Of a stretch of DNA of 64,000 bases, positions 2,382 to 62,866 are shown piece after piece; within the stretch, counting starts at the first letter, position 1; the number at the start of each line of letters is the position of its first letter. Under the pieces are notes generated by a model. That model was given only the letters and a program-made list of their open reading frames with translations. It did no database searches and was not told where the DNA came from. The translations under genes and the position numbers were made by a program. The DNA is from Patescibacteria group bacterium (GTDB taxonomy: Bacteria; Patescibacteriota; Patescibacteriia; Patescibacteriales; WJLG01): positions 1,551-65,550 of the forward strand of contig JAQTUZ010000001.1 of assembly GCA_028707065.1 (NCBI GenBank), given 5' to 3'.

Positions 2382-2570
2382 TAAAATTTATTTTACGATT
2401 AATAATTATGAGTTATCTTATAATACCTAAAGAAATAAAGCAATAATTCGTTGATTATCGGCGAATTTGCCTTTTCCCCGAAACTTTGAACCAAAGATTG
2501 CGGCGTGGTATAATTAATAATGTATTCGAATTTCTTTTAAACGGTAATTTTATAAATTTAACATAAAATT

Positions 2571-4025: not shown

Positions 4026-5460
4026 TTTGCTCCCGAAAAATAAATTAAAATATTCAATCAAGAAAATCATGAACAACAAAATAAAAAATTTCAATCAGCC
4101 GCCAAGTAAAAAAAATTCGCTTGGGCCGATCATTATCGCGCTGATCATTGTTGTTTTGGCGGCAACCGCTTATTTTCTTTATCCCCAATTATTCGGCCAT
4201 AAAAAATCAGCTCAAGAAAATCATATCACTCCCGCCGCCCCGGTCACCATTACTTATATCTCCAATCAGCCGTTGGTCGATGCCGGCGATGGCGCGGTTA
4301 ATCGCTTAAATAATATTATCAACACCTTCACCAAGCAGACGGGAATTAACGTGGAAAGGGTCATCCCGCCGCAATCGGTCGTAACCTATTCGGACATCGG
4401 CCTGTATTTGAAAGATACTTTGAAATCCGGCCAGTCAGTTTTTGACATAACCATGGTTGATGGCCCCTGGACCGGCATGTTCGCCCCCTATCTGCTTGAT
4501 CTGACGCCATATTTCAAAGATCGGTTAAAAGATTTTTTTCCTGACTTGATCGCCAATGCCACGGTAGACGAAAGATTAGTGGCCATGCCGTATTTTCAAG
4601 ACATGACGGTTTTATTTTACCGCACTGATCTTTTGGAAAAATACGGTTACGAAAATCCGCCGCAAACCTGGGATGAATTGGAGCAAATGGCCAAAGTGAT
4701 CCAATCGGGCGAAAGAAAAACTAATTCCAAATTTTGGGGGTATGTCTGGGCGGCCAACGAAAGCGAATCTTTGACCTGCACCGCGCTCGGGCTGCAAGCT
4801 TCTTATGGCGGCGGCACTATCATTGATAACGGCAAAATAACGGTTAACAATCCCGAGGCAATAAAAGCTTTCACCAAGGCAACCGGCTGGATCGGAACCA
4901 TTTCTCCGGTAAGCGTTTTACAATCATCCGAAAGCGATATTTTGACGACTTGGCAAAATGGCAACGCGGCTTTTATGCAAAGCTGGCCGGGCTCTTTCGC
5001 CATGGGCGCTAATTCCGTGATTAGCGGCGACTACCAAATAACCGCCCTGCCTTCGGGCGGCTTCAAGCATTCCGGAGTCTATGGCGGAGAATATCTGGGC
5101 ATTGATAAGCGCACCGCGCACCCCAAGGAAGCCGCGATGTTTTTACAATATCTTTCCAGCCCGGCCGTGCAAAAAGAGCGAGCCAGGGAAGATCTCTGGT
5201 CGCCGGTTCTTCCGGCCCTGTATTCCGATCCTGATCTGGCCAAAGCGCAGCCGGTCTATGAATTTATCAGTTCGGATATTTTTTCCCAAGGCGTAGCTCG
5301 TCCCGGCTCTCAAGCGGGAAATGTTTACGATCAATTGGCAAACGCTTATTTCTCCGATATCCACGCGATCTTAGCCAAGCAAATCAGCGCCCCGGCCGGA
5401 CTCGCGAAATTGGAATCGCAACTGCATGAAATTACCGGATTGCCGATCGCCACAAAATAA
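4018..5460 (+). CDS. ABC transporter substrate-binding protein, family 1; tandem paralog of the previous gene
   Basis: 480 aa, roughly 65-70% identical to the upstream SBP (tandem duplication); no permease or ATPase genes are adjacent. Confidence 0.8.
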   Translation: MINLLPKNKLKYSIKKIMNNKIKNFNQPPSKKNSLGPIIIALIIVVLAATAYFLYPQLFGHKKSAQENHITPAAPVTITYISNQPLVDAGDGAVNRLNNIINTFTKQTGINVERVIPPQSVVTYSDIGLYLKDTLKSGQSVFDITMVDGPWTGMFAPYLLDLTPYFKDRLKDFFPDLIANATVDERLVAMPYFQDMTVLFYRTDLLEKYGYENPPQTWDELEQMAKVIQSGERKTNSKFWGYVWAANESESLTCTALGLQASYGGGTIIDNGKITVNNPEAIKAFTKATGWIGTISPVSVLQSSESDILTTWQNGNAAFMQSWPGSFAMGANSVISGDYQITALPSGGFKHSGVYGGEYLGIDKRTAHPKEAAMFLQYLSSPAVQKERAREDLWSPVLPALYSDPDLAKAQPVYEFISSDIFSQGVARPGSQAGNVYDQLANAYFSDIHAILAKQISAPAGLAKLESQLHEITGLPIATK

Positions 5461-5607
5461 ATGGCATCAACCGCAGGGCAAGCCCTGCACCCATCTTTTC
5501 TAAAAGGTATCCTCGCCGCAAGCGGATGAGGTATTTATCATCGCTCGCTCGGAAATAATCTCCGCGCGGCGCGGGATTATTTCGCTCGCTTCGCTTGATA
5601 ATAAATA
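5454..5607. repeat. Repeat family 1, copy a: a ~150-bp intergenic module containing a near-perfect 32-bp palindrome (GAAATAATCTCCGCGCGGCGCGGGATTATTTC, 5552..5583)
   Basis: Near-identical copy at 8103..8256; both end a few nt before an ATG start codon. Confidence 0.8.
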
Positions 5608-7647
5608 ATGGCCACCAATCCTTCCGCCAAGAATCAGCGGTTAGATTTTTTCACCAAAAATCAACCGATCAGAAAAATCCTGATAGTCGGATCTATCGGC
5701 GTGCTTATTTTCGCCTTTGCGCTGACCTTGGTGATCGTGATCATCAGCGCCAACCAATTTTTAACCACCAAAACCGGCAAATCATTCTTAGCTTTAGCCC
5801 AATCCAATAGCCAGCAATTCAGCGACGAGATCGCGAGCGAGATGAGCCTCTTGGGCACTTTGACGCAAAACGACATGGTCTACATGTATCTGCGCGATGA
5901 ATTTGATCCGGAAATCGCCAATTTATCAAAAGTTGAGCGCCAGGCCCTGATCCTCCAGCGCGAGCAAAAATGGCTGAATAATGACCGAGAGGTTCGCGAT
6001 TCGGTCACGAACAATATCTTAAGCCAAGGCTTTACCGCGTTTATCAGGAAGAATTTCGGCGTTAGCGAGATCGTTTTAGTTGACAAAGAAGGAAGAGCAA
6101 TCGCCTCCGGCGGGACAATGCCGGATCATTATTATTTCGGCGAGCAAAAATGGTTCAAGGATGTCAGTAACGGAATGAGCGATATCTATCTTGAAGAACC
6201 GGCCGTCAGCTCCGGCCAAAATAAATCCGAAGTGGAAATTATTTTATCGGTCAATCTCCCGTCGTTCAGCGTCTCGCGGGGATATTTATACGCCAAATAC
6301 GACATCAGCCAGTTAAAATTATTTTCCACCATTTTATTGGGCGATCCCAACGTTCACATGTCATTAGTTAATCAAAACGGGCTGGTTCTTTTTGATACCG
6401 TGGCCGGTCAGATCGGCGGCAATTTATCGGCGGTGATGACCAGACAGACCAGCCAAGAAGCCGCGCCAAATTGGCATCTCGGCCAAGATGCTTCCCGCAC
6501 TCCGCTTATTTATAGTTACGCGCCGATCTACTTCAACGACTTATCGATCAATCATCTTTCTTGGTCGATCTTTGTCAGAGAAACAAGCGCCCAAGCTTTT
6601 TCTTTCTTGACCGTGCTGTCCTTGACCATCTTTTTTATCGCCATTTTTATCTTTATCCTGTCTTCGCTGGTGATCTTCTGGCTGGCTTCGGGAATTACCC
6701 GCCCGATCACCAATCTCTTGGGCGTAGTGGAAGAATTTACCGCGGGCAATTATTCCCAGCGCGCCGAAGAATCCGGACCGTACGAATTCAAACTTTTAGG
6801 CGCTTCTTTCAATAAAATGGTTGATAGCATCTTGGCGGCAGAGAAAAAACGCTTGGAAGCGGAAAGGATAAAGAGAGAAGCGGCGGAAAAATACGCAAAA
6901 AAATTGGAAGATCTGGACAAGACGAAGGACAATTTCATCAATATTGTCACTCATGAGCTTAAAACTCCGTTGATACCGATCCTCGGCTTGACCGACGTGA
7001 TGGTGCAAAAGAAAAAAACTTTGTCGGCCGATTTTCAAAACTATGTCGATATCATCCACGACGAAGCGATCAAGCTTTCCGACCTGATCAAACAAATGCT
7101 CACCACCACCAGAATCCAGAATAACATGAAAATTCAAGAAGAAACTTTCAAGATCGACGAATTTATTTCAGGGAATCAAACCGCCTTGAATGAGTTAACG
7201 AAAAGAACTGGTTCAAAAATTGAATACAAAATCAACGCGGCCAACGTGATGATCTCCAGCGATAAAGAAAGGATTTCCCAGGTTATTTACAATTTGGTGG
7301 ACAATGCGGTAAAATACGGGCCAGTGGGGCAAACCATCACCATTACCTTGAGCCAGCCCGACAGCCAATCAGTTAAAGTGGAGGTAGCGGATCAGGGCAA
7401 GGGGATCCCCGTCGAACTTCGAGACAAATTATTCTTGAAATTTTCCCAGCTTGATCCGGCCGCTTCCCGCGCCGGGGAAGGCGTCGGATTGGGATTATAC
7501 ATCTGCAAGCAAAATATCGACCACTTGGGCGGACGGATCGGTCTGGAGAGCGAAGTCGGCCATGGTTCAAAATTTTATTTCGTCTTGCCTTTGCGACATG
7601 AGCTAAAAGATAATATTTCAAACGCGGCGAATAAAAGCAGCGGTTAA
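5608..7647 (+). CDS. Sensor histidine kinase (two TM segments flanking a ~290-aa extracytoplasmic domain, then HAMP, HisKA and HATPase_c)
   Basis: HELKTPL H-box and N/G1/G2 ATP-lid motifs (DNAVKYG, GEGVGLGLYIC). Confidence 0.85.
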   Translation: MATNPSAKNQRLDFFTKNQPIRKILIVGSIGVLIFAFALTLVIVIISANQFLTTKTGKSFLALAQSNSQQFSDEIASEMSLLGTLTQNDMVYMYLRDEFDPEIANLSKVERQALILQREQKWLNNDREVRDSVTNNILSQGFTAFIRKNFGVSEIVLVDKEGRAIASGGTMPDHYYFGEQKWFKDVSNGMSDIYLEEPAVSSGQNKSEVEIILSVNLPSFSVSRGYLYAKYDISQLKLFSTILLGDPNVHMSLVNQNGLVLFDTVAGQIGGNLSAVMTRQTSQEAAPNWHLGQDASRTPLIYSYAPIYFNDLSINHLSWSIFVRETSAQAFSFLTVLSLTIFFIAIFIFILSSLVIFWLASGITRPITNLLGVVEEFTAGNYSQRAEESGPYEFKLLGASFNKMVDSILAAEKKRLEAERIKREAAEKYAKKLEDLDKTKDNFINIVTHELKTPLIPILGLTDVMVQKKKTLSADFQNYVDIIHDEAIKLSDLIKQMLTTTRIQNNMKIQEETFKIDEFISGNQTALNELTKRTGSKIEYKINAANVMISSDKERISQVIYNLVDNAVKYGPVGQTITITLSQPDSQSVKVEVADQGKGIPVELRDKLFLKFSQLDPAASRAGEGVGLGLYICKQNIDHLGGRIGLESEVGHGSKFYFVLPLRHELKDNISNAANKSSG

Positions 7648-8738: not shown

Positions 8739-10565
8739 TCAAACTTTAATCACTACCGGCAACACCATGGGGCGGCGCTTGGTTTTGGAGAAAAGGAATT
8801 GGCCGACCTCGTCGCGGATCTTATTCTTGATATGATCGACGTCGGCGGAAGTGCGCGAGTCATGCGATTCCACCATTTTTTTCACTTTCATTCTGGTCGC
8901 TTCGATCAGTTCGCGGCTGTCTTTCATATAGACGAAGCCGCGGGAAATAATATCCGGATTGCCGATTGTCTTACCATGTTCGGAATCGATGGTGGCGATG
9001 ATCACAATCATCCCGTCCTCGGCCATGACGCGGCGGTCTCTTAAAACAATATTGGAAACGTCGCCCACGCCCAGACCATCAACCATGACATAATCGGTCA
9101 CGACTTTTTCTTTGGTCAAGCGGCCAACCGTAACGCCGGTTTCATTTTTAGAAAATTCCACCACTTGCCCGTTATCGGCGATAAAAGTTTTTTCTTTGGG
9201 AATGCCCACGGCGCGAGCCAGATCGCCTTCGGCTTTCAGCATAAAGTGATTGCCCTCGATCGGCATAATATATTCCGGCTTTAATAAGCGCATCATCAAT
9301 TTCAAGTCTTCCTGCTTGGCATGGCCGCCGGCGTGCACGTCCATCATTTCATAATGAATAACATCAGCGCCCTGGCGGGTGATCATATCTTTCAAGCTTT
9401 GGATCGTGCGCTCATTGCCCGGGATGACCGAGGAAGAAAAGATCACTGTATCACCCTCCTTGAGATGAATGGTTTTATGCTCGTGCGAAACCACCCGCAC
9501 CAAAAAAGCATTGGACTCGCCTTGCGCGCCCGTGCCCAAAATCAAAACTTTATTATCGGGCAAGCGGTTCAATTCATTGTCCGTCACCAAAATGCGCGGA
9601 TTGAATTTCATATAGCCGATCTGGTGGGCGATCTCGACGTTATCGTTCATGCTCCGGCCCTGGAGATAAACACGGCGGCCGTACTTTTCCGCCAGATCGA
9701 ATAATTTTTGCACGCGAGCCAATTGCGAAGCGAAAGTGCCGATGATGATCCGCCCGTCGATCTTCTCAAAAATTTTATCCATTTCATTGCCGATGGCCGA
9801 TTCGGAAAGCTGATAGCCCGGATGAGTGGAGTCGGTGGAATCGGACATCAAGAGCATTACTCCTTCCGAACCGATCTGGGCGATGCGCTGCAAGTCGGCC
9901 GGCTTATCGTTGACCGGCGAATAATCGATCTTAAAATCCCCGGTATGAATGATACGGCCGACCGGCGTATCGACGATCACGGCGAAACAATCAGGAATGG
10001 AATGATTGACTCTTAAAAATCCAATTCGAAAGGCCCGGCCCAGCCGCAAAACCGAATTTTCATCGATGATCTGGTCATTTAATTTGGGGCAGTCGCGGTA
10101 TTCGGCGCATTTCTTTTTTACCAGCCCGGCTGTCAGCTTGCCCATGAAGATCGGCGGATTGCCGATCTCGCCCATAATATGAGGAATGCCGCCGATATGG
10201 TCATAATGGCCATGAGTAATGATCACGCCCTTAACCCATTCCGCCTTGTCTTTCAGATAGCTGACATTGGGAATGATGTAATCGATGCCCGGCATATCTT
10301 CTTCGGGAAATTGCAGGCCCATATCGATAATAATGATCTCCCGCTCGTATTCGATGAGAGTCATATTCCGGCCGACTTCTTCCAATCCGCCCAAGACGAT
10401 AATTTTTAATTTACCGTCCGGGCTGGTGATGATTTGTTCGGCCGGCGTCTTCGGCGCCGTTTGAGTCGGACGCGGTCCGTGATAGGAAGAAAAAAACTTC
10501 CTCTTTTCCCCTCCCGCGCCTCGCGGCGGCTGATGAGAGGTTCTTGGTTTGTACTTGGTGTTCAT
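8739..10565 (-). CDS. rnj: Ribonuclease J (metallo-beta-lactamase, beta-CASP and C-terminal domains) with a basic N-terminal extension
   Basis: HGHYDHIGG motif and beta-CASP architecture, 608 aa. Confidence 0.85.
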   Translation of the reverse strand: MNTKYKPRTSHQPPRGAGGEKRKFFSSYHGPRPTQTAPKTPAEQIITSPDGKLKIIVLGGLEEVGRNMTLIEYEREIIIIDMGLQFPEEDMPGIDYIIPNVSYLKDKAEWVKGVIITHGHYDHIGGIPHIMGEIGNPPIFMGKLTAGLVKKKCAEYRDCPKLNDQIIDENSVLRLGRAFRIGFLRVNHSIPDCFAVIVDTPVGRIIHTGDFKIDYSPVNDKPADLQRIAQIGSEGVMLLMSDSTDSTHPGYQLSESAIGNEMDKIFEKIDGRIIIGTFASQLARVQKLFDLAEKYGRRVYLQGRSMNDNVEIAHQIGYMKFNPRILVTDNELNRLPDNKVLILGTGAQGESNAFLVRVVSHEHKTIHLKEGDTVIFSSSVIPGNERTIQSLKDMITRQGADVIHYEMMDVHAGGHAKQEDLKLMMRLLKPEYIMPIEGNHFMLKAEGDLARAVGIPKEKTFIADNGQVVEFSKNETGVTVGRLTKEKVVTDYVMVDGLGVGDVSNIVLRDRRVMAEDGMIVIIATIDSEHGKTIGNPDIISRGFVYMKDSRELIEATRMKVKKMVESHDSRTSADVDHIKNKIRDEVGQFLFSKTKRRPMVLPVVIKV

Positions 10566-10671
10566 AAATTAGAAGCAAATTTAATAAAAATTATTTTGGA
10601 GTTCAAATTTTTAATTTGTTTGCTTAGATTAATATTGTTAGATTGTTAAATTGTTATGTTGTTGAGCATTT

Positions 10672-10708
10672 TTGGCTCTGGCAGAGTCTCGCATCAGCGG
10701 ACTCTGCC
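10672..10708. repeat. Repeat family 2, copy a: 37-bp hairpin element TGGCTCYGGCAGAGTCTCGC-NNN-AGCGGACTCTGCC
   Basis: 9-bp inverted repeat GGCAGAGTC/GACTCTGCC; other copies at 11476..11512 and 34694..34729. Confidence 0.8.
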
Positions 10709-12151: not shown

Positions 12152-12299
12152 GATTTTATTTCGGTTATCGTAAAAAGATCACCTGTTCAGTAAACAAATT
12201 TGTATAAAATAGATCCTTCTCCGCCCGGGGCGGATCAGGATGACAAAAAACTGGAAAGCGCAACAACTAAGTACCTAATCAACTAATTGACTAATAGAC

Positions 12300-14303
12300 T
12301 TACCATTCGAGCCTTTCTCCCGTCTTCACGTACCAATTGAAAACGTCGGAGAAGCGGTCGGCGGGAGAGGCGATGCTTTTGACCGCGAAGCCTTTGATTT
12401 TTTTATTTTGCACGTAATTATAGTAAGGCGAGAAAAGGAAAACCGCCGGCGCGTCATTGGTCAACAAGGTTTGAAATTGCTGGTAATCGGCGATCCGCTG
12501 GTTGCGATCCAGGCTCAAGCGCCCCTCTTCCAAACTTTTATCAACCTCTTCGTTCTTGTAGTTGGCCAAATTCAAACCGCCGGCTCCGGCTTGCGTCGAA
12601 TGCCAAAAAACATAAACATCGGGATCGTTGCCGACTTGTTCGCTAAACAACAACACTTCATAATTTTTCGGTTTGACCACGCTGGCTTGGATTTCCTTGG
12701 CCGGAACCGGCGTAATAGCGACTTTGGCGCCGATCTTTTCCCAGCTATCTTTGACGATCTGGGCGATTTTGGCATTTTCCTCGTCAGCGCTGATCGACAA
12801 ATTAATGATCAAATAATTTCTTACCGCTGGCGTTGTCGTCTTGGTTTTTGTCGTGGCGGTTTTGCTCGCCGGCTCTTGATAAAGCCAGGTCCCTGCTCCC
12901 AGCGCAAGCTCGGATTTTTCAATATCGGTTAAAGAGGGCTTGGTCGTTGAAGCTTTTTTGGTCTCCAGCGCTTTAATCATTTCGTCGGTGACGATATCTT
13001 TTTTCCATCCCGCGGCATCTAATACGGATGCGGCTCGGGCCAGATCAAAATCATATTTCTGTATATTGGGATTATAGGCATAATTATCATCCAAGATCGG
13101 GCCGTTAACGATTCGGGCATTGCCTCCCTCAACTTGATCGATTATTTGTTGTTTGGGCGTGGCATAAGACAAAGCTTGCCGTACTTTCGCGTCTTTTAAA
13201 AGGGAATTTTTATCCTGATTGAAAAAAATCGCTTTTAATTGCGGCTGATCGAGCTGATAAAAATTCAAAGTATTTTTAGCGATCAAATTTTCCCGGTCAG
13301 TATTGGACAAATAACTCAAGCCATCAACGCTGTTATCGTTCAAAGCGTTGAGAGCTTCGGCGGCATCGGCGTAAAATTTAAAAACAATCTCTTTCAAATA
13401 AGGTTTCCGGCCGTAATAATTTTTATTGGCCGTCAAAGTATAACTCTTGATATTTCCGCTCTTATCCTTGACCAATGACTTGAATTGGTAAGGGCCGGAA
13501 CCGATCGGTTTTAAATTAGGCTCGGCCACCGGCGCGGACTCCGGAGCGACTTGGCCCCAAACCGATTGCGGCATAATGCCAAAGGTCAGCAAGCCCAAAA
13601 ATGGCGCGTAGTTCTCCGACAAAGTGAAGACCACGGTCTGATCATCTTGCCGGGTCGCGTCCACGCCGGCAAGACCGAATCGCAAAGGAGAATTATAAGC
13701 CGGATTGGCAATATCTTCGAAGGTAGAAACAACATCGTCGGCTGTAATTTTTTCACCGTCCTGCCAGCGGGCGTCACTCCTCAATTTTATCGTGTAGGCT
13801 TTGCCATCGGCTGAAACCTGATAGCTTTCCGCCAAATCGTTTTCCAGCTGTCCGTTGCCGTCATACTTAAAAAGAGCTGAGTAGATCAAATGGCCAAGAT
13901 CATCATCCACGTCGGAGAGCGTCGCGTAAAGCGGGTTGATATGCGCGGGGCTGCCGATCAATCCTTCGGCATATTGCCCCCCCGCTACGGGCATCACGCG
14001 CAAATGTTTCTGGGCCGCGTTAAAACCCAGCCAGCCTAAATTCAAAACGATAAAAATTATCAATAAATTGATCAGCCAAATTTCCCGCTTATGCAAAGTT
14101 TTACCCAAATGCTTAAGCTGGCGAAGCGAAGGAATTTTCGATTTCGACAAAGAATAAACTAATTTTTTGTCCAAATTTGCATTAATCATGATAACTTTCG
14201 GCCGTCGGGGACCAAAAATCTTACCGATAAAAAACAAGGAGTCGGCAAAAAATTTTCTGACCATGGCCAATAGCGGTAAAATTTTACTTTTTAATAAACC
14301 CAT
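12300..14303 (-). CDS. ABC transporter substrate-binding protein, family 5 (OppA/DppA-like), N-terminally membrane-anchored
   Basis: 667 aa with family-5 SBP-like architecture after an N-terminal TM helix; no cognate permease genes nearby. Confidence 0.7.
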   Translation of the reverse strand: MGLLKSKILPLLAMVRKFFADSLFFIGKIFGPRRPKVIMINANLDKKLVYSLSKSKIPSLRQLKHLGKTLHKREIWLINLLIIFIVLNLGWLGFNAAQKHLRVMPVAGGQYAEGLIGSPAHINPLYATLSDVDDDLGHLIYSALFKYDGNGQLENDLAESYQVSADGKAYTIKLRSDARWQDGEKITADDVVSTFEDIANPAYNSPLRFGLAGVDATRQDDQTVVFTLSENYAPFLGLLTFGIMPQSVWGQVAPESAPVAEPNLKPIGSGPYQFKSLVKDKSGNIKSYTLTANKNYYGRKPYLKEIVFKFYADAAEALNALNDNSVDGLSYLSNTDRENLIAKNTLNFYQLDQPQLKAIFFNQDKNSLLKDAKVRQALSYATPKQQIIDQVEGGNARIVNGPILDDNYAYNPNIQKYDFDLARAASVLDAAGWKKDIVTDEMIKALETKKASTTKPSLTDIEKSELALGAGTWLYQEPASKTATTKTKTTTPAVRNYLIINLSISADEENAKIAQIVKDSWEKIGAKVAITPVPAKEIQASVVKPKNYEVLLFSEQVGNDPDVYVFWHSTQAGAGGLNLANYKNEEVDKSLEEGRLSLDRNQRIADYQQFQTLLTNDAPAVFLFSPYYNYVQNKKIKGFAVKSIASPADRFSDVFNWYVKTGERLEW

Positions 14304-14792: not shown

Positions 14793-14864
14793 AAAACGGA
14801 AATTGGAAATTTGAAATTAGAAATTTGAAGACAAAAAACTTTATACAAAATATTTCCGGCAGAA

Positions 14865-15544: not shown

Positions 15545-15551
15545 AAAAAAA

Positions 15552-15662
15552 TATAATCCGAATACTACAAATTATATCCGAATACTACGAACTCCACGAA
15601 CCGAACAAATTTTCGTTAAAATGTTCGTGGTATTCGGATATTTCGTAGGTTCGGATTATAAA
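15552..15662. mobile_element. Repeat family 3, copy A: ~110-bp MITE-like element with terminal inverted repeats (ATAATCCGAATACTAC ... GTAGGTTCGGATTAT) and internal CGAATACTACGAAC/GTTCGTGGTATTCG arms
   Basis: Sits between infC and rpmI and ends 7 nt from the rpmI start codon; related copies at 23878..23979, 42369..42493, 48414..48536 and 49058..49112. Confidence 0.75.
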
Positions 15663-31295: not shown

Positions 31296-31437
31296 TTTTG
31301 TCATCCCGCCCCATTGTCATTGCGAGCGCCGCGCGAAGCAATCTCGCCCCTGGCGGAAAAACACTTCGCTATCGCGAGACGCGGGATTGCTTCGTCGTCC
31401 GCCCAAGGCGGACTCCTCGCAATGACAAAAATAAAAG
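31296..31437. repeat. Repeat family 4, variant copy: TIR element TGTCATTGCGAGCGCCGCGCGAAGCAATC ... GATTGCTTCGTC..CTCGCAATGACA
   Basis: Same architecture as the TGTCATCCTGAGCG copies, but with compensatory substitutions in both stem halves. Confidence 0.75.
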
Positions 31438-32313: not shown

Positions 32314-32494
32314 TTGTCATCCTGAGCGCCGCGCGAAGGATCTATTATAGGAGATGCTTCTAAAAACATCAGCAAACATTAGAACGAACAAGTAAAAAAT
32401 ATCATCGATAAAAAAATTGGCAGTAGTAATTCAAGTTTTGCCTAGAATAGATCCTTCGTCGTCAGCCGAGGCGGCCTCCTCCTCAGGATGACAA
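32314..32494. mobile_element. Repeat family 4, copy 1: 181-bp MITE-like element with ~30-bp TIRs (TTGTCATCCTGAGCGCCGCGCGAAGGATCTATT / AATAGATCCTTCG..CTCAGGATGACAA)
   Basis: Near-perfect terminal inverted repeats with an AT-rich core; lies immediately downstream of the recQ stop. Confidence 0.8.
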
Positions 32495-32508: not shown

Positions 32509-34755
32509 CTACTTGTTACCTGATACCTGTTTGAATTTCGCCCGCGCAATTTTAATTTCTTCCCAAGAATAATCATCGCCAAGTTCGTCTTTGATCGGCG
32601 TCAGTTTTTCAAAGCCGACTTTTTTAATGGCGGCGAAAATCTTGTCCTGTTTTTTAGAACTCACCAATTTATCGATGTCTTTTATCAAGCCTTTTTCAAT
32701 TAAAAATACTAAGTGGTTATAAATCGTTTCAACGGTGAAGCCGCGCGCGCCGGCGATCCCGGCCGGATTGTAATTCTTGTTGAACAATTCCAAAGTTTCC
32801 AATTGCGTCAATTTGGTATTCAAAGTTTTCTTCTCCACCTTTATTTCTCCAAAATCCACCTTTAACACACCCCGGCGCTCCGAGACGTCGCGCCACCCCT
32901 CTCGAGAGGGGACTTTTTTAAAATCTTTTCGTGCGTAGCGATTCCCCTCTGGAGAGGGGTGGCTCGCGCCTCGCGAGACGGGGTGTGTGACGTCCGAAGC
33001 TCCGCCCAAACAATTATCGCACTTGCCGCAGTGTTCAACGTCGTATTCGCCGAAGTAATTCAGAATATATTCCGGACGGCAACTGAAATGATAGACATAA
33101 TCTTCCATCTCGTCTAATTTACTGTAAGCCCGGGCGGCTTTTTCGCGCATCGCCGAAAAATCTATCTTGACTTCGGATCGCGGAACGCGTTTCAAAATTT
33201 GGATTTCCGTACCGCGCTTAGGCGGATTATATTCGACCAGCTCGGCTTTTTTCCAGGCATTAATCGAGCGCACCAAAGCTTCGCGGCCGACTTCGATAGT
33301 TCCGGCCACTTCATCCAGATCAAATTCCCAGCCCTCGAACAACTCGGTGGCAAACCGCGCGTTCAATTTATTCAAGATTTCCACCTGCTTCTTGGCTTGT
33401 TTGGAAACAAAATCCAAAGTCGTCTGATGATTATTGATCATCCTTAAAAATGCCGGCGAAGTTTTTTCGCTCGAGCGGGCGATATAACCTTCTTTTTCCA
33501 GAATTTTCAAACAGGTGCCGACGGCCATGTCCGGGACTTTGTCCGACAAATTTTCCATCAGCTCGGCATAAGTCGTAAAAATCCGGTCGGTTTCATAGTT
33601 AGTCAAAACTTCGTAAATTTCCAGAACTGTTTCCGGCGCCGGGTTATCGCCCTTGATAAAAAATTCCCGCAAGAACCGATCCTTGGGCGCAAAAAATAAA
33701 AGACAAAGCGAAGGCGCGCCATCGCGACCGGCCCGGCCGGCCTCCTGATAATAGGCCTCGATCGTCCCCGGCATATCGTGATGAATCACGAAGCGCACGT
33801 CTTTTTTATCAATCCCTAAGCCGAAAGCGTTGGTGGCAACGATTATTTTAGTTTTGCCTTTCAGAAAATTTTCCTGCGTCCAAGAACGGCTTTCCGGATC
33901 CATCCCGGCGTGATAAAAAACCGCTTCCAAACCGCGCTCTAGTAATACGTCGGTAACTTCTTCAGCTTTGGCGCGCGTGCCGGTGTAAATTATCCCACAG
34001 CCTTCGACGCTTTCGGCCGCGTCAGCGATCAGCGATAATTTTTGCGCGTCCGGCGCTTTGATCACGCCGAATTGCAGATTCGGCCGGGTAAAGCCGGTGA
34101 TTATTTTTTTCACCCCAGTCATATTTAGCTGCTTCACAATATCCTCTTTTACTTCAGGTGTAGCTGTAGCTGTAAGCGCAACTATGGGAGGGTGACCGCA
34201 AAGTTCGATCGCTCTGCCCAATCTCATATAGCTGGGCCGGAAATCATGACCCCATTGCGAAATGCAATGCGCTTCGTCCACTGCGAATAATTTCACTTTC
34301 AACTGAGCAAGCTGTGAAACAAATTCATCATTATAAAATCTTTCCGGTGCGATATATAAAAGTTTATAAAATTCTTTTTTGACCAACTCCAACCTCTCTT
34401 TGGCCTCGTCGGGCGAGATCGAAGAATTGATGAAAGTCGCGGGCACGCCGATCTTATTCATCGAATCAACCTGATCTTTCATCAAGGCGATCAGCGGCGA
34501 AACCACGATTGCCACGCCGTCCAATACCAAAGCCGGCAATTGAAAAATCAAAGACTTGCCGCCGCCGGTCGGCATCACGACTAAAACGTCTTTGCCGTCC
34601 AAGATGGCGTCGATCGCTTCTTCCTGCCCGGGCCTAAATTTATCAAAACCATAATGGATTTTGAGCAATTCGACCGCCTGCTTCTTTTTTTGACTGGCTC
34701 CGGCAGAGTCTCGCGTAGCGGACTCTGCCGTTAAATTCGTATTTTCGGTATTCAT
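32509..34755 (-). CDS. recQ: ATP-dependent DNA helicase RecQ family with in-frame repeat-element insertions
   Basis: Helicase motifs (VVMPTGGGKS, DEAH) and a zinc-binding CGKCDNC. Family-7 elements at 32862..32911 and 32944..32989 and a family-2 hairpin at 34694..34729 are in-frame without stop codons. The true N-terminus is uncertain. Confidence 0.85.
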   Translation of the reverse strand: MNTENTNLTAESATRDSAGASQKKKQAVELLKIHYGFDKFRPGQEEAIDAILDGKDVLVVMPTGGGKSLIFQLPALVLDGVAIVVSPLIALMKDQVDSMNKIGVPATFINSSISPDEAKERLELVKKEFYKLLYIAPERFYNDEFVSQLAQLKVKLFAVDEAHCISQWGHDFRPSYMRLGRAIELCGHPPIVALTATATPEVKEDIVKQLNMTGVKKIITGFTRPNLQFGVIKAPDAQKLSLIADAAESVEGCGIIYTGTRAKAEEVTDVLLERGLEAVFYHAGMDPESRSWTQENFLKGKTKIIVATNAFGLGIDKKDVRFVIHHDMPGTIEAYYQEAGRAGRDGAPSLCLLFFAPKDRFLREFFIKGDNPAPETVLEIYEVLTNYETDRIFTTYAELMENLSDKVPDMAVGTCLKILEKEGYIARSSEKTSPAFLRMINNHQTTLDFVSKQAKKQVEILNKLNARFATELFEGWEFDLDEVAGTIEVGREALVRSINAWKKAELVEYNPPKRGTEIQILKRVPRSEVKIDFSAMREKAARAYSKLDEMEDYVYHFSCRPEYILNYFGEYDVEHCGKCDNCLGGASDVTHPVSRGASHPSPEGNRYARKDFKKVPSREGWRDVSERRGVLKVDFGEIKVEKKTLNTKLTQLETLELFNKNYNPAGIAGARGFTVETIYNHLVFLIEKGLIKDIDKLVSSKKQDKIFAAIKKVGFEKLTPIKDELGDDYSWEEIKIARAKFKQVSGNK
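32862..32989. repeat. Repeat family 7, copies ii and iii (inverted relative to each other) inside recQ coding sequence
   Basis: TTAACACACCCCG..CCACCCCTCTCGAGAGGGGA at 32862..32911 and its reverse-orientation relative at 32944..32989. They encode KKVPSREGWRDVSERRGVLK and DVTHPVSRGASHPSPEGN in the RecQ frame. Confidence 0.8.
34694..34729. repeat. Repeat family 2, copy c (37-bp hairpin) within the annotated recQ N-terminus
   Basis: CTGGCTCCGGCAGAGTCTCGCGTAGCGGACTCTGCC. Confidence 0.8.
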
Positions 34756-34828: not shown

Positions 34829-34980
34829 TTGTCATCCTGCCTGCCCGGCCAGGGAGCGCGTCGCGAAGGATCTATTACACGCGAAGCGCGAACATCGTTG
34901 ACAAAAATTTTTATCGTATTGATATGGGCCTCATGAGTAATAGATCCTTCACTCCGCTCCGCTGCGTTCAGGATGACAAA
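34829..34980. mobile_element. Repeat family 4, copy 2 (152 bp) between recQ and the GIY-YIG gene
   Basis: TIRs TTGTCATCCTG..CGAAGGATCTATTA / TAATAGATCCTTC..CAGGATGACAA; the right TIR supplies the last codons of the GIY-YIG ORF. Confidence 0.8.
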
Positions 34981-35221
34981 AAATTTTTGCCAATTTTAAC
35001 TTTTCCGCTCTGGATAATTTCTTAATTTTACTTTCCGCCTTAGCCGCCGCGGACCGGTTGCGGAATTTTTTGGAGTAAACGATTTTCACCGGCCTTCTGG
35101 CGCGGGTATATTTCGCGCCCTTTTTCGATTCGTTATGCTCCTTAACTCGCCGCGCCAAATCAACCGTGATCCCGGTATATAAAGTCTGATCCGCGCATTT
35201 TAAGATATAAAGATAGTACAT
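34949..35221 (-). CDS. GIY-YIG nuclease domain protein (small, UPF0213-like)
   Basis: YYLYILKC..LYTGIT..L..R..EHN GIY-YIG motif, 90 aa; the C-terminal ~11 aa are encoded by the repeat TIR. Confidence 0.6.
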   Translation of the reverse strand: MYYLYILKCADQTLYTGITVDLARRVKEHNESKKGAKYTRARRPVKIVYSKKFRNRSAAAKAESKIKKLSRAEKLKLAKIFCHPERSGAE

Positions 35222-42361: not shown

Positions 42362-42368
42362 AAAAATA

Positions 42369-42493
42369 ATATAATCTGAATACTACAAATTGTATCCGAA
42401 TTCTACGAACTCTACAAATCGAAAAATTTTCCGTAAAAAACGTTCGTAGTATTCGGTCCGCCAGCTGGCGGATTTCGTAGGTTCGGATTATAT
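42369..42493. mobile_element. Repeat family 3, copy C
   Basis: TIRs ATAATCTGAATACTACAAATT ... TTTCGTAGGTTCGGATTATAT; ends 8 nt upstream of the terC start. Confidence 0.75.
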
Positions 42494-44750: not shown

Positions 44751-46559
44751 TCAATTCTGCCCATTTTTTTTAACCATATATCCTTCTTCAAGGCGATAGC
44801 CGAGCTTTTTATAATAACCGCGCGTGCCGATCCCGGCGATAACCGCAATTTGATTAAAATTATTCTGTCGGGCGATCTTTTCCGCTTCGGCCAAAAGTTT
44901 TCTTCCCAATCCGCCGTGCTGGATTCCCCCCTCCTTTTCAAGGAGGGGTTTGGGGGTGGTTCTCCCGCCGACCGGCACCAGCTCGCCATACACATGCAAC
45001 TCTCTAACTATTGCCGAATTATTTAAAAAAGAATATTTTTCATCCGCTATCTTTTTGTCATCCTGAGCGCCGCGCGAAGGATCTATTGTCCGAGAAATTT
45101 TCAATTTCGCAATAAAAAATTTTGATTGAATAAAATCGGCGTTCTTACAAAATAGATCCTTCGTCAGGGACTCAGGATGACAAAGAAACGGAAGGCGTAA
45201 ACGGCAAAAACCGTAAAGCGTTTTCCCGTCTTGTGAATCAAAAGAAATGAAATATTCCTGTCCGCCCGACGCGGGATATTCTTGAATATTCAATTTCAAC
45301 TTTCCAGCTTTAATAGTTTTATCTTTAACTTCGCGGCAGCGGATGCAGCGGCAGCGCGCGCCTTCCTGCTGCATAACCTGGCGCAGATTAGTGATCGTGT
45401 TTCCCGCTTCGATCGATTCGCCGGGAATATCGCGGATCAATCTGATAATCCGGACATATTCGGGCACTGCTTTTTTGCAATCGATAATTAGCTGACGCAA
45501 AACTTTATCGGAGTACGGGCGATATTTGCCAGCCTTCCACCATCGATAAAGTTTTGAACCCTTAGTCACGACTGTCGGATAAAATTTTATCTGGTCCGGC
45601 TGGAAGCGCTCGTCAGAAAATGATTGCTTGAACATCGCCAGATCTTTTTTAGCCGTCGCGCCGGGCAAGCCCGGCATCAGATGATACGTGACTTTGAACC
45701 CAAAATTTTTCAGCAGTTCGGTCGCGCGGACAATTTCGGCCACGCCGTGACCGCGATTATTTTTCGCCAAAATTTTATCATCGACCGCCTGCACGCCCAA
45801 CTCGACCCGCGTCGCGCCCAGCTCGCGCATTTCGATCAATTCTTTCTCATCAATATAATCGGGCCTCGTCTCCAAAGTAATACCGATAATCTTATATTTT
45901 GCTTTTTCGTTTTTCTTCTGCTCGGAAAATAATTGCTTTTTAGTTTCTTCCAGCTTTAACACACCCCGTCTTGCGCGGCGCAAGCCACCCCTCTCGAGAG
46001 GGGACTTCTTATTTAATGCCCCGTCGCAGTCTCCGCCGCGGGACTGCGACGAAAACTCATTTGCCGCGCGGAAGCATTCTTTGATAAACCAAAATTTATA
46101 AGCGCGGGGCAAGACGCTCCAAGTTCCGCCGATCACGATCAGTTCGATCTTTTCCGGGCGATGGCCATTGATCTCCAAAGCTTCCAAGCGCGTCCGCACC
46201 TGCTCGTACGGATCATATTTATTACGGATCGCCCGCATCACGGCCGGCTCGTTAGACAAATAACTTTTTGGCACGTTTTTTTCCGTGGGGCAAAACGCGC
46301 ACTTGCCCGGACATTTCCAAGGCTTGGTCAAAACCGCCACCGGCGCCACGCCGGAAAGCGTGCGCACGGCGCGCCGCTTTAACAGCCGCGCGAATTTTTC
46401 ATCGAATTTAACCCGGCCGCTTTTTACCAAAAGCAAATACTCCCGCCACAGTTCCGAATGCCGGGGAAGTTCTTCACCTTTTTTGACCAATTTCCGCTTC
46501 AGGGCCATCAATTCTGCGGCGGTTTTTGGTTTTTGCTTAATAATTTCACCGATCATCAT
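44751..46559 (-). CDS. Elp3-family radical SAM/GNAT protein (tRNA wobble-uridine modification homolog) carrying two in-frame repeat-element insertions
   Basis: CPGKCAFCP radical-SAM cysteine cluster. The C-terminal GNAT region (FCRLRLP..VRELHVYG..QHGGLGRKLL.EAEKIAR) resembles Elp3. Element copies at 45055..45183 and 45956..46004 sit in-frame. Confidence 0.75.
   Translation of the reverse strand: MMIGEIIKQKPKTAAELMALKRKLVKKGEELPRHSELWREYLLLVKSGRVKFDEKFARLLKRRAVRTLSGVAPVAVLTKPWKCPGKCAFCPTEKNVPKSYLSNEPAVMRAIRNKYDPYEQVRTRLEALEINGHRPEKIELIVIGGTWSVLPRAYKFWFIKECFRAANEFSSQSRGGDCDGALNKKSPLERGGLRRARRGVLKLEETKKQLFSEQKKNEKAKYKIIGITLETRPDYIDEKELIEMRELGATRVELGVQAVDDKILAKNNRGHGVAEIVRATELLKNFGFKVTYHLMPGLPGATAKKDLAMFKQSFSDERFQPDQIKFYPTVVTKGSKLYRWWKAGKYRPYSDKVLRQLIIDCKKAVPEYVRIIRLIRDIPGESIEAGNTITNLRQVMQQEGARCRCIRCREVKDKTIKAGKLKLNIQEYPASGGQEYFISFDSQDGKTLYGFCRLRLPFLCHPESLTKDLFCKNADFIQSKFFIAKLKISRTIDPSRGAQDDKKIADEKYSFLNNSAIVRELHVYGELVPVGGRTTPKPLLEKEGGIQHGGLGRKLLAEAEKIARQNNFNQIAVIAGIGTRGYYKKLGYRLEEGYMVKKNGQN
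45055..45183. mobile_element. Repeat family 4, copy 3, inserted in-frame in the GNAT domain of the Elp3-like gene
   Basis: TIRs TTGTCATCCTGAGCG.../...CTCAGGATGACAA; translated on the minus strand as LCHPESLTKDLFCKNADFIQSKFFIAKLKISRTIDPSRGAQDDK with no stop. Confidence 0.8.
45956..46004. repeat. Repeat family 7, copy iv, in-frame in the radical-SAM domain of the Elp3-like gene
   Basis: TTAACACACCCCGTCTTGCGCGGCGCAAGCCACCCCTCTCGAGAGGGGA encodes KSPLERGGLRRARRGVLK. Confidence 0.8.
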
Positions 46560-48346: not shown

Positions 48347-48413
48347 TTTTTATAATATAGGCCCAGCTTTTGGGTCTATATTTGTTAAGAGGCTTTTTAC
48401 AAATTTTCAAGTC

Positions 48414-48536
48414 AGTATATAATGCGAATACTACAAATTGTGCGCGAATACTACGAACGGATTTAACGAATTAAAAATAATTCGATAAATAATTTGCGGT
48501 ATTCGCGAATAATTCGTTGTATTCGCATCATGTCAT
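48414..48536. mobile_element. Repeat family 3, copy D
   Basis: TIRs TAATGCGAATACTACAAATT ... AATTCGTTGTATTCGCATCA; abuts the NYN gene start (6 nt). Confidence 0.75.
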
Positions 48537-49034
48537 ATGATAAAACATAAAGAACAGAGGGTTGGGGTGCTTGTTGATGCCTCCAATATGTATCATTCGG
48601 CGAGAAATCTTTTCGGCGCGCATCTAAATTATAAAGAAGTTTTGGACGTCGCGGTCGCCGGCCGGAAATTGATCCGGGCGATAGCTTACGTGGTCAAAAC
48701 CGAAGGCGAAGAAGAAACGCCGTTTTTTGAAGCTTTGTCGCAGTTGGGTTTTGAAATTAATATGAAAGACTTGCAAATTTTCCCGGGCGGAATGAAAAAA
48801 GCCGACTGGGATGTCGGTCTTTCGGTCGACGCGATCAAGCTGGCGGAAAAATTGGATGTGATTGTTTTGGTTACCGGCGACGGCGACTATCTGCCTTTAG
48901 TTGAATATCTGCAAAACACCAAAGGCTGCCTCGTCGAAGTCCTCGCCTTCCGCAAATCCGCCTCATCCAAACTGATCGAAGCCGCCGATGATTTTATTGA
49001 TTTGAGCGAGAATAAAAAATTCTTGATTCGCTAA
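48537..49034 (+). CDS. NYN-domain (LabA-like/DUF88) putative ribonuclease
   Basis: VGVLVDASNMYHSAR...VLVTGDGDYLPLV conserved acidic residues typical of the NYN/PIN-like fold. Confidence 0.65.
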   Translation: MIKHKEQRVGVLVDASNMYHSARNLFGAHLNYKEVLDVAVAGRKLIRAIAYVVKTEGEEETPFFEALSQLGFEINMKDLQIFPGGMKKADWDVGLSVDAIKLAEKLDVIVLVTGDGDYLPLVEYLQNTKGCLVEVLAFRKSASSKLIEAADDFIDLSENKKFLIR

Positions 49035-49057: not shown

Positions 49058-49112
49058 ATAATGCGAACCTACGAATTGTACGCGAATACTACGAACAGTT
49101 TAACGAAGTTTA
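49058..49112. repeat. Repeat family 3, partial copy E (left-end half)
   Basis: ATAATGCGAACCTACGAATTGTACGCGAATACTACGAAC matches the left ends of copies A to D; no right TIR. Confidence 0.6.
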
Positions 49113-49131
49113 TTCGACTATTAATAAACCT

Positions 49132-56451: not shown

Positions 56452-57594
56452 TTATTGTTTAATAGGCATAATAATATATAAATATCCTTTTTCACCCAGC
56501 GGCTTGATCAGGCACGGCGTATTGCCGTCAATCACTTCCAGCTTGATCGTTTCTTCGTCGATATTATTCAAGCCGTCCAATAAATATTGATAGTTGATGA
56601 TAATGCCGTTGTCAATGCCGTTGGTTTCAGCTTCAATCTTGACGATATTTTCGCCGGTAGTGCCGGAGGCCGAAGAAACGATCACTTGATTTTTTCCTTC
56701 GGGAAAGTCCAGATTAATATCATTGATGCCGCTTTTGGAAAAAAGCGCCGACGCCTTAATGGCCCTGATCAATTCAAAACGGTTCAGCACGGCCGTGGTT
56801 TTTCCGGCCGCGGGAATAATCTGTTTATAATCGGGATATTGCCCCTCGATCAGGCGAGAAATCAATTCGGTATTATCGACCGCGAATAATATTTGATTGT
56901 CGTTGATGTAAAAATTAATTTCCTTTTTACCCCCCTCGCCCTGGTCCAGGCCGGCCAAAATTCTTAATATTTCCTGAATGGTCCGGGCCGGAACAATGAC
57001 CTTTTGCTCTGGAACGGCCTTGTCTTTCCCCTCGCTACCCTCCTCTTTGATCTCCAATTCTTTTTCCGCCAAGCGATAGCTGTCCGTCGCCGCCAAAACC
57101 AATTTGTTCTGGCCAATCGTCATTAAAACTCCCGACAACTCGATGCGCGATTCACTGTTAGCCGCGGCAAAAACCACCTTGGCCAGCGCGTTCTTCAAGT
57201 CCGCGATCTTGACGGTTTTCTTATTTTTTTTCTCAATTTGCGGAATCAAAGGAAAATCCTCGCTCGCCTCGGTTTTTATTTTTGTCTTGAAATTTTCACA
57301 CTCCACGCGTAAGACCCCGTCTTCCTTGATCAGATCAATTTTTTTATTAGGTAAAAGGTTGATGTAATCGGCAAAAATTTTGGCATCTACCGTAAAACTT
57401 CCTTCTTTTTCCACTTTCCCCCGGATAAAATGAGTAATACCCACTTCCAAATTCGTCGTCATCAGCCGCACACCCTCTTTTTTAACCTCCACTAAAATAT
57501 TATTTAAAATCGGCAAGTTGGCATTTTTGCCGGCCAAGTGGCTGACAATAAATAACCCTTGTTTTAAATTTTCTTTTAGGATCGAGAGGTTCAT
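56452..57594 (-). CDS. dnaN: DNA polymerase III subunit beta (sliding clamp)
   Basis: 380 aa; three-domain clamp similarity; immediately downstream of dnaA. Confidence 0.9.
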   Translation of the reverse strand: MNLSILKENLKQGLFIVSHLAGKNANLPILNNILVEVKKEGVRLMTTNLEVGITHFIRGKVEKEGSFTVDAKIFADYINLLPNKKIDLIKEDGVLRVECENFKTKIKTEASEDFPLIPQIEKKNKKTVKIADLKNALAKVVFAAANSESRIELSGVLMTIGQNKLVLAATDSYRLAEKELEIKEEGSEGKDKAVPEQKVIVPARTIQEILRILAGLDQGEGGKKEINFYINDNQILFAVDNTELISRLIEGQYPDYKQIIPAAGKTTAVLNRFELIRAIKASALFSKSGINDINLDFPEGKNQVIVSSASGTTGENIVKIEAETNGIDNGIIINYQYLLDGLNNIDEETIKLEVIDGNTPCLIKPLGEKGYLYIIMPIKQ

Positions 57595-57840
57595 ATCTTT
57601 TATTAATTTAATATCTTTATTTAATAATAGTAATAAGCGAGTGGATAAGATTGGAAGAAAAAAATTATTGGTTAATATTAAATTGTTTATTCGTATAAAG
57701 CGGTGAATAAGGGTGGGGATGGAGTGTTGAAGGGTTTTAACGGTTTGGGGAAAAGTCCGCTCCGGCGGGACTTATCCCGAAACTGTAAAAAATTATGCGG
57801 TGGTTGTTAACCGTGTTTGGCGGCCTTGTTCACAGCTTGC
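57595..57840. promoter_or_regulatory. Candidate oriC segment in the dnaA-dnaN intergenic region: DnaA-box-like 9-mers plus an AT-rich stretch
   Basis: AGTGGATAA and GGTGAATAA (8/9 and 7/9 matches to TGTGGATAA) with a neighbouring AT-rich run (AAAAAATTATTGGTTAATATTAAATTGTTTATT). Confidence 0.4.
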
Positions 57841-62619: not shown

Positions 62620-62866
62620 CAGGGAAATTAAAAATTACAAATTAAGAATTAAAAATTTAAGGGTTAATGGTTATAACATGTAATTGTCAAGATTAAATTA
62701 CCGGACTTTAGTCCACGATATTGTGTACTAAAGTTAATGGTGATTATAAATATAGGCTAATATTAAATAAAATATATATTAATAGCTAATATTAAACAAG
62801 ATATTACGGTTTTTCAAAAAACAAACAATTTGTAATTTATAATTTTTAATTTATAATTGATTAAGA

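Follow-up and report, generated by a model that had tools for sequence, protein, structure and literature searches.

Repeat copies and other features of the analyzed window

The window, i.e., the whole analyzed stretch of 64,000 nt from a Patescibacteria group bacterium, carries four full copies (A–D) of an element with inverted terminal arms, a solo truncated copy, and a module remnant. Copies A–C lie between co-directional genes, and copy D is intragenic, hence all four are expected to be transcribed; the RecQ stop codon is 16 nt before copy B. The features are as follows (no strand is given for whole doublets and the central segment):

12208..12245, - strand: solo truncated copy, AATAG plus right module TGTC-ATCCT-GA-TCCGCC CCG GGCGGA-GA-AGGAT-C, without left arm (grammar, folding)
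31299..31312, + strand: truncated module remnant TGTCATCCCGCCCC, directly upstream of copy A (read from sequence)
31315..31427: copy A, TGC/GCA-type doublet, 113 nt, ends TGTCAT...ATGACA (sequence, grammar, fold)
31315..31343, + strand: copy A left hairpin module, TGTC-ATTGC-GA-GCG CCG CGC-GAA-GCAAT-C (grammar fit; folds alone)
31344..31384: central segment of copy A, GC-rich, with ends CTCGC/GCGGG that pair as the inner stem (one T.G pair)
31385..31427, - strand: copy A right hairpin module, TGTC-ATTGC-GAGGAG-TCCGCC TTG GGCGGA-CGACGAA-GCAAT-C as read on the - strand (grammar, folding)
32315..32493: copy B, CCT/AGG-type doublet with AT-rich centre; modules 32315–32342 (+) and 32450–32493 (-)
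34830..34978: copy C, CCT/AGG-type doublet; modules 34830–34872 (+, nested GC hairpin) and 34943–34978 (-)
44751..46559, - strand: Elp3 gene (essential, tRNA modification) carrying copy D, an insert of about 43–44 aa
45056..45182: copy D, CCT/AGG-type doublet, in frame inside Elp3; modules 45056–45083 (+) and 45155–45182 (-)

Copy A reads, in order, TGTCATTGCGAGCG...GAAGCAATC...GATTGCTTCG...CTCGCAATGACA, with the segments TGTCAT-TGC-GAGCG..GAA-GCA-ATC on one side and GAT-TGC-TTCG..CTC-GCA-ATGACA on the other. Copies B and D read TGTCATCCTGAGCG...GAAGGATCTATT...AATAGATCCTTC...CTCAGGATGACA, with CCT/AGG at the four triplet places of copy A; copy C has the same triplets as B and D and altered apical sequence, with left end TGTCATCCTGCCTG, containing the nested GC hairpin, and right end CGTTCAGGATGACA. 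The matched changes in both arms of copy A relative to B, C, and D, which the first-pass annotation had pointed out, are indeed present in the sequence. The ends it quoted for the three other copies are correct for B and D but not for C; the four full copies it counted are complemented by the fifth, truncated one, which it missed; and the start it gave for the element, 31296, should be moved to 31315, as the earlier start takes in the remnant.

The repeats are non-random. A 14-mer search with up to 3 mismatches yields 10 matches in the window vs. 3.07 ± 1.67 in shuffles, and none of 100 shuffles reached 10. Whole copies fold far better than shuffled sequences, with z-scores from -4.8 to -8.8 (copy A, -7.0 on the + strand and -4.8 on the - strand); each arm also folds alone.

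Several other features are seen in the window. The dnaN and dnaA genes lie together at 56452–59214 (-), which places the replication origin probably near 59.3 kb; with this origin, all element copies would be on one replichore, in one shared orientation. Tandem AT-rich heptamers, (AATTACA/AATTAAG)n, occur at 14793–14838, 20044–20089, 21442–21502, 26477–26588, and 62625–62658; several of these arrays adjoin tRNA and tmRNA genes, and Elp3 orthologues have repeats of this type within their translated sequence. A repeat of about 77 nt with TATAAT and two CGAATACTACRAAC, partly palindromic, is found near gene starts (15545–15621, 42363–42439, and 48411–48487), with inverted copies at 23865–23983, 48479–48542, and 49069–49125; it could be a promoter or leader motif. 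A 59-nt direct repeat, 98% identical (20789–20847 and 20985–21043), lies just past the 3' end of the tmRNA gene (21065–21448, -) and is possibly an att duplication of a small integrated element; related GC-rich repeats are seen near tRNA genes at 59.8–60.1 kb and 63.0–63.5 kb. Two tandem paralogous genes of about 480 aa (2571–4025 and 4018–5460, +; DNA 67–78% identical) look like extracellular solute-binding proteins.

Structure of the module and the doublet

All nine arms of the window fit a single hairpin grammar: a foot (Y)TGTC; a 5-bp basal stem AT-NNN/N'N'N'-AT, with three variable inner pairs; a closing C; and, above the basal stem, tandem G.A mismatches (GA..GA) followed by a GC-rich apical stem, short but of varying length, that ends in a triloop. 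Each of the nine arms, taken alone, folds to the predicted hairpin with both RNA and DNA parameters; e.g., in the left module of copy A the 5-bp stem is followed by a 2x2-3 GA internal loop and then by a 3-bp apical stem capped with a triloop.

Two such small hairpin modules, inverted relative to each other, make up the element. In this doublet they face outward (TGTCAT...ATGACA) and are joined by an element-specific short stem and a hypervariable centre. The inner stem in the window is CTATT/AATAG in copies B–D and CTCGC/GCGGG in copy A. The centres are dissimilar among the window copies compared, and such unrelated centres within one genome argue against recent copy-and-paste of whole doublets.

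The apices of the two arms of one copy differ (13 nt vs. 21–37 nt in the window), so the arms are not simple mirror copies. The window apical loops are CCG, CCT, or TTG, not GNA, as in the apices GCG-CCG-CGC, GTC-CCT-GAC, and TCCGCC-TTG-GGCGGA; GCGGAGC is seen solely in the right arm of copy C.

Compensatory differences between the two ends are by themselves an insufficient argument for a hairpin, since any family of terminal inverted repeats with two ends copying one recognition sequence shows them, hairpin or not. More telling is a relation missed earlier: the outer and inner changes of one and the same arm are complementary, ATCCT..AGGAT being replaced by ATTGC..GCAAT, which makes every arm its own hairpin.

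Covariation across the family

Public collections were scanned with regular expressions that fixed the foot, the loop, and ATC, and left both triplets as N; patterns fixing the loop sequence bias the sample toward conserved members, and the family counts treat related, hence not independent, sequences as separate. The genome-contig scan yielded at least 120 loci from Acidobacteriota, Chloroflexota, Nitrospirota, Bacteroidota, Desulfobacterota, Gemmatimonadota, Planctomycetota, Clostridia, Alpha- and Betaproteobacteria, Saccharibacteria, Gracilibacteria, and Uhrbacteria. Overall, the collection scans place family members in more than 10 phyla, with at least eight triplet types, among them CCT, TCT, TCC, TGC, GTT, CCC, TTC, GCT, CGC, and TGT. 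Viral collections gave 50 viral-contig loci with one pattern and at least 120 with another; the family is present in phage-like contigs.

The 3' triplet is the exact complement of the 5' triplet in 135/156 of the genome-contig matches listed, with 1/64 expected by chance, and in 113/122 of the metagenome-contig matches listed for an independent, long-arm pattern. In 38 distinct short arms, 94.4% of cells are paired, vs. 86.1 ± 1.0 in shuffles, and 36 cells are double-changed, vs. 13.6 ± 4.2; neither value was reached in 500 shuffles, and slid registers pair at only 15–55%.

Hence, the larger alignment does contain supported covarying pairs, and the earlier claim of pairing preserved while the sequence changes is borne out both across the window arms and in the collection scans. 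Selection on a hairpin, the conclusion then drawn, needs to be relocated: hairpin pairing is preserved, but the preserved helix lies inside each arm and not in a long arm-to-arm hairpin. Its extension, that selection acts on the hairpin rather than on primary sequence, is overstated, as YTGTCAT, GA..GA, and ATC are nearly invariant across phyla.

Arms of the TGC type always carry an extra A (GAA-GCA), as in the window, and are found in Proteobacteria, Chloroflexota, and Patescibacteria. Given this spread, the window variant is a member of an old subfamily and not, as initially supposed, a compensated mutant of its neighbours; the TGC and CCT types are old subfamilies coexisting in this Patescibacteria genome and in many phyla.

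In Rfam, the window matches only tmRNA and tRNAs at the gathering score, along with chance-level matches at E up to 10, and no match is found in 18 element-rich loci. Literature text searches with the repeat sequence or the encoded peptides returned only unrelated primers and proteins, and copies on replicons of Novosphingobium, Methylocystis, Methylosinus, Halomonas, and Aulosira have no annotation. Records with numerous copies include those of Nitrospirales, Dehalococcoidia, Novosphingobium, and Methylosinus. The cross-phylum hairpin-doublet family is apparently uncurated.

Local hairpins and the long arm-to-arm hairpin

In the window all four triplets of a copy agree, hence within-arm and arm-to-arm pairing are indistinguishable there. 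The arms of the window copies are largely complementary to each other, and nearest-neighbour calculations with RNA parameters favour the extended arm-to-arm hairpin over the four-way form by 20–27 kcal/mol.

The two pairings were compared in 100 two-armed elements from other genomes, taken among the matches listed and detected with no requirement for complementarity. All four triplets are concordant in 56 of them; 26 retain Watson–Crick pairs within both arms with arm-to-arm triplet pairing broken; and a single element pairs between the arms only. Hybrid doublets mostly combine CCT with TCT. The difference is a single transition in most of them, so that one of the two arm-to-arm stems would still hold a G.T pair; in some it involves two positions or a transversion. 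The apical length is unequal between the arms in 75/100 elements. A fold-back (inverted duplication) origin of the doublets was considered as well and is disfavoured by these unlike apices (75/100 of the doublets among the matches listed).

In the inner stem, at least 3 extra base pairs of element-specific sequence are formed in 55% of 121 doublets (among the matches listed) vs. 6.8 ± 2.2% with shuffled partners; true arm-to-arm covariation is limited to the short variable stem just inside the arms, and the evolutionary signal, as read from the alignments, favours local hairpins. Within-arm pairing, the element-specific inner stem, and the invariant TGTC/GACA together argue strongly that the conserved fold is a four-helix junction with no unpaired junction bases, rather than one long hairpin; in this architecture P1 is TGTC/GACA, P2 and P4 the arm hairpins, and P3 the inner stem.

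Copies inside genes and insertion history

A locus from another genome, L122, is syntenic with the window (Elp3, AttH, TerC, SHMT, FolD, GIY-YIG, and RecQ). In the window, the right module of copy C (34943–34978) replaces the stop of a 90-aa GIY-YIG ORF (34949–35221, -), which it lengthens by 10 terminal codons and closes with a stop of its own; in L122, the GIY-YIG gene (10396–10707) has its own stop, and the GIY-YIG/RecQ spacer is empty where the window has copy C.

Structure and orthologue alignments place the copy D insert between the radical-SAM/linker part and the acetyltransferase domain of Elp3, with query residues 460–513 aligned to residues 370–379 of 5l7j. In orthologues this loop is occupied by a CCT-type element (L122), a TCT/CCT hybrid (L123), or, in a different reading frame, a TGC-type element (L121); others have a peptide derived from AT-heptamers (LQIKNYKLKIKD) or nothing there. 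The insert is retained in frame in L122 (Elp3 gene 2068–3855), where the 73-nt centre is collinear with that of the window and 89% identical, at 74% identity of the gene; the two inserts are orthologous. Of the differences in the centre, 7/8 are nonsynonymous, hence whatever constraint or more recent shared history lies behind the similarity does not concern the peptide. Between the window and L122 the two arms have traded their apical parts, and nested small GC hairpins are present in the L122 arms, which points to inversion or conversion between inverted repeats. The best non-self Elp3 in the protein collection is 78% identical, with no closer relative for an exact empty-site comparison.

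Elp3 also carries other inserts. A second GC-rich palindromic repeat family (TCCCCTCTGGAGAGGGG...) is in frame in two genes, at 32943–32988 (RecQ ORF 32509–34755) and at 45959–46004 (Elp3 ORF), and a third small Elp3 insert (TTPKPLLEKEGG), at about 44928–44963, is absent from orthologues.

A search for target-site duplications found them in 3–7 of 66 elements (among the matches listed), vs. 2.3–6.0 expected from shuffled flanks.

Placement, orientation, and the DNA or RNA level of action

Paired modules face outward in 71 cases and inward in 13, with a spacer mostly of 20–40 nt, and solo modules are found in 29 convergent, 31 tandem, and 8 divergent spacers (both counts among the matches listed). 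This distribution bears on the possibility that the modules are palindromic operator-like sites, bound as duplex by a dimeric host protein (nucleoid or regulatory), with half-sites co-varying with protein specificity. Each module is indeed an inverted repeat with conserved flanks, and modules are mostly intergenic; however, they are depleted from the divergent, promoter-side spacers (the 8 against 29 and 31 above), a single genome, and even a single doublet, may combine several types, and the G.A mismatches conserved between the half-sites would be meaningless in duplex DNA. The half-site spacing ranges from 7 to about 40 nt through apical insertions, and this variable spacing, with the unequal apical lengths, excludes a dimeric site of fixed spacing on duplex DNA. 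We consider operator-like sites extremely improbable.

Solo modules between co-directional genes are sense in 63 cases and antisense in 49, and whole loci may run either way; consecutive solo modules in a locus are co-oriented at 72:9. Among non-Watson–Crick intermediates, 7 T.G and 10 C.A are seen, with no strand bias (all among the matches listed). The G.A-rich form occurs with one arm on each strand. A tetranucleotide 5' of the hairpin foot is conserved, the foot being (Y)TGTC throughout the family, every window arm included. The two unconstrained bases of the apex are N-A in 141/156 genome and 115/122 metagenome matches among those listed, so that the apex, GCG-N-A-GC, has the consensus of the DNA mini-hairpin GCGNAGC, which is extraordinarily stable, melts at 76.5 C, and occurs in single-strand replication origins (PMC13037366).

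These data have to be weighed against a cis element acting in RNA, i.e., hairpins in polycistronic mRNA serving as stabilisers, processing sites, or translational insulators, with the doublet making the function independent of orientation. Consistent with it, copies A–D would all be transcribed, given their positions; tandem G.A pairs are stable in RNA too, and folding with RNA parameters yields the hairpins; REPs have known effects on mRNA turnover (PMC3479197); and in the L248 contig described below eight solo modules in successive spacers are each followed by GGGCTAAAGAAGG and ATG. The inconsistent orientation relative to genes (63 vs. 49 among the matches listed) and the lack of G.U-type strand asymmetry (7 vs. 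10 among the matches listed) are hard to reconcile with it, as is the apex, GCGNAGC being a DNA-specific triloop mini-hairpin and not a GNRA tetraloop (PMC13037366). Further, no U-run follows the hairpins, there is no Rfam match, and, with respect to the gene, the window and L122 have their arm apices interchanged. On this balance an RNA-level element seems unlikely. The N-A apex, the lack of wobble strand bias, the mixed sense, the co-orientation, the lack of duplication, and the spacer bias together are more similar to how REP and IS200/IS605-type repeats behave as single-stranded DNA than to a strand-specific RNA.

L248, a phage-like IMG/VR contig, has eight same-strand solo modules in successive intergenic spacers (3340–7202 and 12714–12744), with one in nearly every spacer, and seven of the eight are directly followed by CTAAAGA(A/G)G, similar to a ribosome-binding site. 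This suggests RNA-level or local regulatory use there; the orientation coherence could also come from duplication of larger cassettes. In a Bacteroidaceae contig (L020, 3459–4217), a tandem array with a 105-nt period has one GTT/AAC-type module per unit and an open frame across the array.

Two specific RNA structures were considered and rejected. An intrinsic terminator does not fit the window copies, as no T-run follows the hairpins on either strand; nor does a hammerhead-like core (CUGANGA..GAA), because the triplet containing its CU varies freely (TGC, GTT, and other types).

Search for a partner protein

We clustered ORFs all-against-all in 120 genome loci, 240 genome plus metagenome loci, and 166 viral loci (among the matches listed). 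No protein family recurs beside the modules in about 3.1 Mb of loci, where only generic families or phage structural genes were seen. Where outward-facing arms are 0.4–3.5 kb apart, only housekeeping ORFs, and no transposase, lie between them. E. coli RayT and IS200 queries detected no Y1/RAYT ORF, either in the window or in the 240 listed loci from genomes and metagenomes, and none is next to a module in the clustered viral loci either; the only IS200-like ORF detected, in L400, lacks bounding modules. The GIY-YIG gene was rejected as a mobilising nuclease, since a homologue is near 1/120 of the loci listed and L122 keeps the gene without the element.

RAYT-like genes of Chloroflexota, cyanobacterial plasmids, and Acidobacteria-like contigs, two of the contigs being from the viral collection, are flanked by their own GTAG/GTGG-type REPs/REPINs and not by TGTCAT modules, at the following loci:

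L124: 2890–3000 and 3560–3900
L125
L126
L371: 1050–1170 and 1815–1860
L406: 1200–1300

This holds even where TGTCAT doublets share the contig; in L371 and L406, with doublets and GTAG/GTGG REPINs together, two distinct hairpin repeat systems coexist. Association of the TGTCAT modules with RAYT is supported neither by the flanks of RAYT-like genes nor by the neighbour searches.

The arms could also be the terminal inverted repeats of an ordinary MITE, recognised as duplex DNA by a DDE transposase, with the matched differences due only to two transposase specificities; this would account for part of the data. Many DDE elements end in 5'-TG/CA-3', and the TGT...ACA ends are similar to such termini; outward-facing doublets are the main arrangement; and copy C is present in one and absent from the other of two syntenic genomes. 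Yet of the features of DDE-type MITEs only the terminal inverted repeats are found here: target-site duplications (3–7/66 among the matches listed) are as frequent as in shuffled flanks, and there is no parent IS with a transposase, either between distant outward arms or recurring nearby. Within-arm complementarity in at least eight types is needless for duplex binding; hybrid doublets combine unlike arm types; arm length varies; solo modules are common; and the centres are unrelated between copies of one genome. A MITE of this kind is therefore highly unlikely.

Comparison with known repeat systems

Similar to REP/BIME/REPIN–RAYT repeats, the TGTCAT modules are imperfect palindromes of 25–45 nt with stem mismatches, usually arranged as inverted doublets with a less conserved spacer; they are high-copy, lie mostly at gene 3' ends, and leave no target-site duplication. 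REP and IS200/IS605 have a conserved tetranucleotide 5' of the hairpin foot, GTAG in REP (PMC3479197), while the foot here is TGTC; and in REPIN–RAYT systems a single-copy RAYT gene is flanked by the same repeats (PMC5581495), while none of the searched loci has a RAYT gene beside a module, and one copy is intragenic. With a foot other than GTAG and no RAYT linkage, membership in REP/REPIN–RAYT is not supported. REP sequences are usually lineage-specific, whereas the same module sequence is seen across more than 10 phyla.

The ends of IS200/IS605 and PATE are hairpins recognised in single-stranded DNA, as proposed here; they too have a strand-coherent orientation, a 4-nt guide located 5' of the foot, and no duplication of the target site. 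However, the LE and RE hairpins of IS200/IS605 are on the same strand and are not inverted repeats, while the arms here are inverted copies of one module; and a Y1 transposase, normally nearby, was not found at the module loci searched.

Cyanobacterial SDR, which Elhai and coauthors are said to have described in Genome Research in 2008, are reportedly 21–27 nt long, hairpin-forming, with compensatory changes, and restricted to heterocystous cyanobacteria; they reportedly also show nested insertions and association with tandem heptamer repeats, doublets not being a hallmark. The TGTCAT modules share with them the very small hairpin size, compensatory changes, nested insertions, and tandem heptamers (abundant in the window), but the sequences differ.

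The d(GCGNAGC) hairpin is known from the phage G4 origin, RSF1010 ssiA, and phage N4 hairpin promoters (PMC13037366). Most family members have the same apex, GCG-N-A-GC, in which A is fixed and N is free; each known case is a single functional site of a replicon, whereas TGTCAT modules are dispersed repeats, with other apices in the window.

MITEs inserting in frame include Rickettsia palindromic elements (RPE), QMITE, and ERIC (PMC10969869). Compared by description, RPEs are similar to copies D and C in being palindromes of about 100–150 nt in frame in protein genes, kept as extra peptide; they differ in the taxon, and a modular hairpin-doublet with intra-arm covariation has not been described for them.

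Interpretation and implications

We lean towards a REP-like, non-autonomous hairpin-doublet element acting in single-stranded DNA, and consider this reading somewhat probable, with moderate confidence in the single-strand, REP-like mechanism. The modules would act and spread as hairpins of single-stranded DNA, much as REP/REPIN or IS200/IS605-type ends do; they leave no target duplication, and are tolerated at gene 3' ends and, in this lineage, even in frame inside genes. What the data show are the anatomy, the covariation, the phylogenetic breadth, the lack of target-site duplication, the presence or absence of copies between syntenic genomes, and the in-frame retention; action at the level of DNA and not of RNA, a hairpin-specific enzyme for mobility, and any role for the host are what we infer here.

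More tentatively, and as something possible rather than probable, the TGTCAT modules may constitute a cross-phylum class of single-stranded four-way-junction hairpins, distinct from GTAG REPs, served not by RAYT but by another enzyme or host process, and of such age, or under such constraint, that Patescibacteria lineages have kept them in frame within an essential gene, with an insert centre better conserved than the coding DNA around it. If so, this would be a second large class of bacterial hairpin repeats beside REP/RAYT. One module sequence is common to Acidobacteriota, Chloroflexota, Nitrospirota, Bacteroidota, Proteobacteria, Firmicutes, Patescibacteria, and phage-like contigs, and this breadth implies very widespread recognition machinery or a structural DNA role not assigned so far.

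The modules also yield many spurious "hypothetical proteins" and inflate real ones (here, Elp3, RecQ, and GIY-YIG), hence a module model would improve annotation. Finally, a free 3-bp segment within a fixed hairpin, together with hybrid doublets and swapped apices, makes this family a natural system for the evolution of structured DNA repeats.
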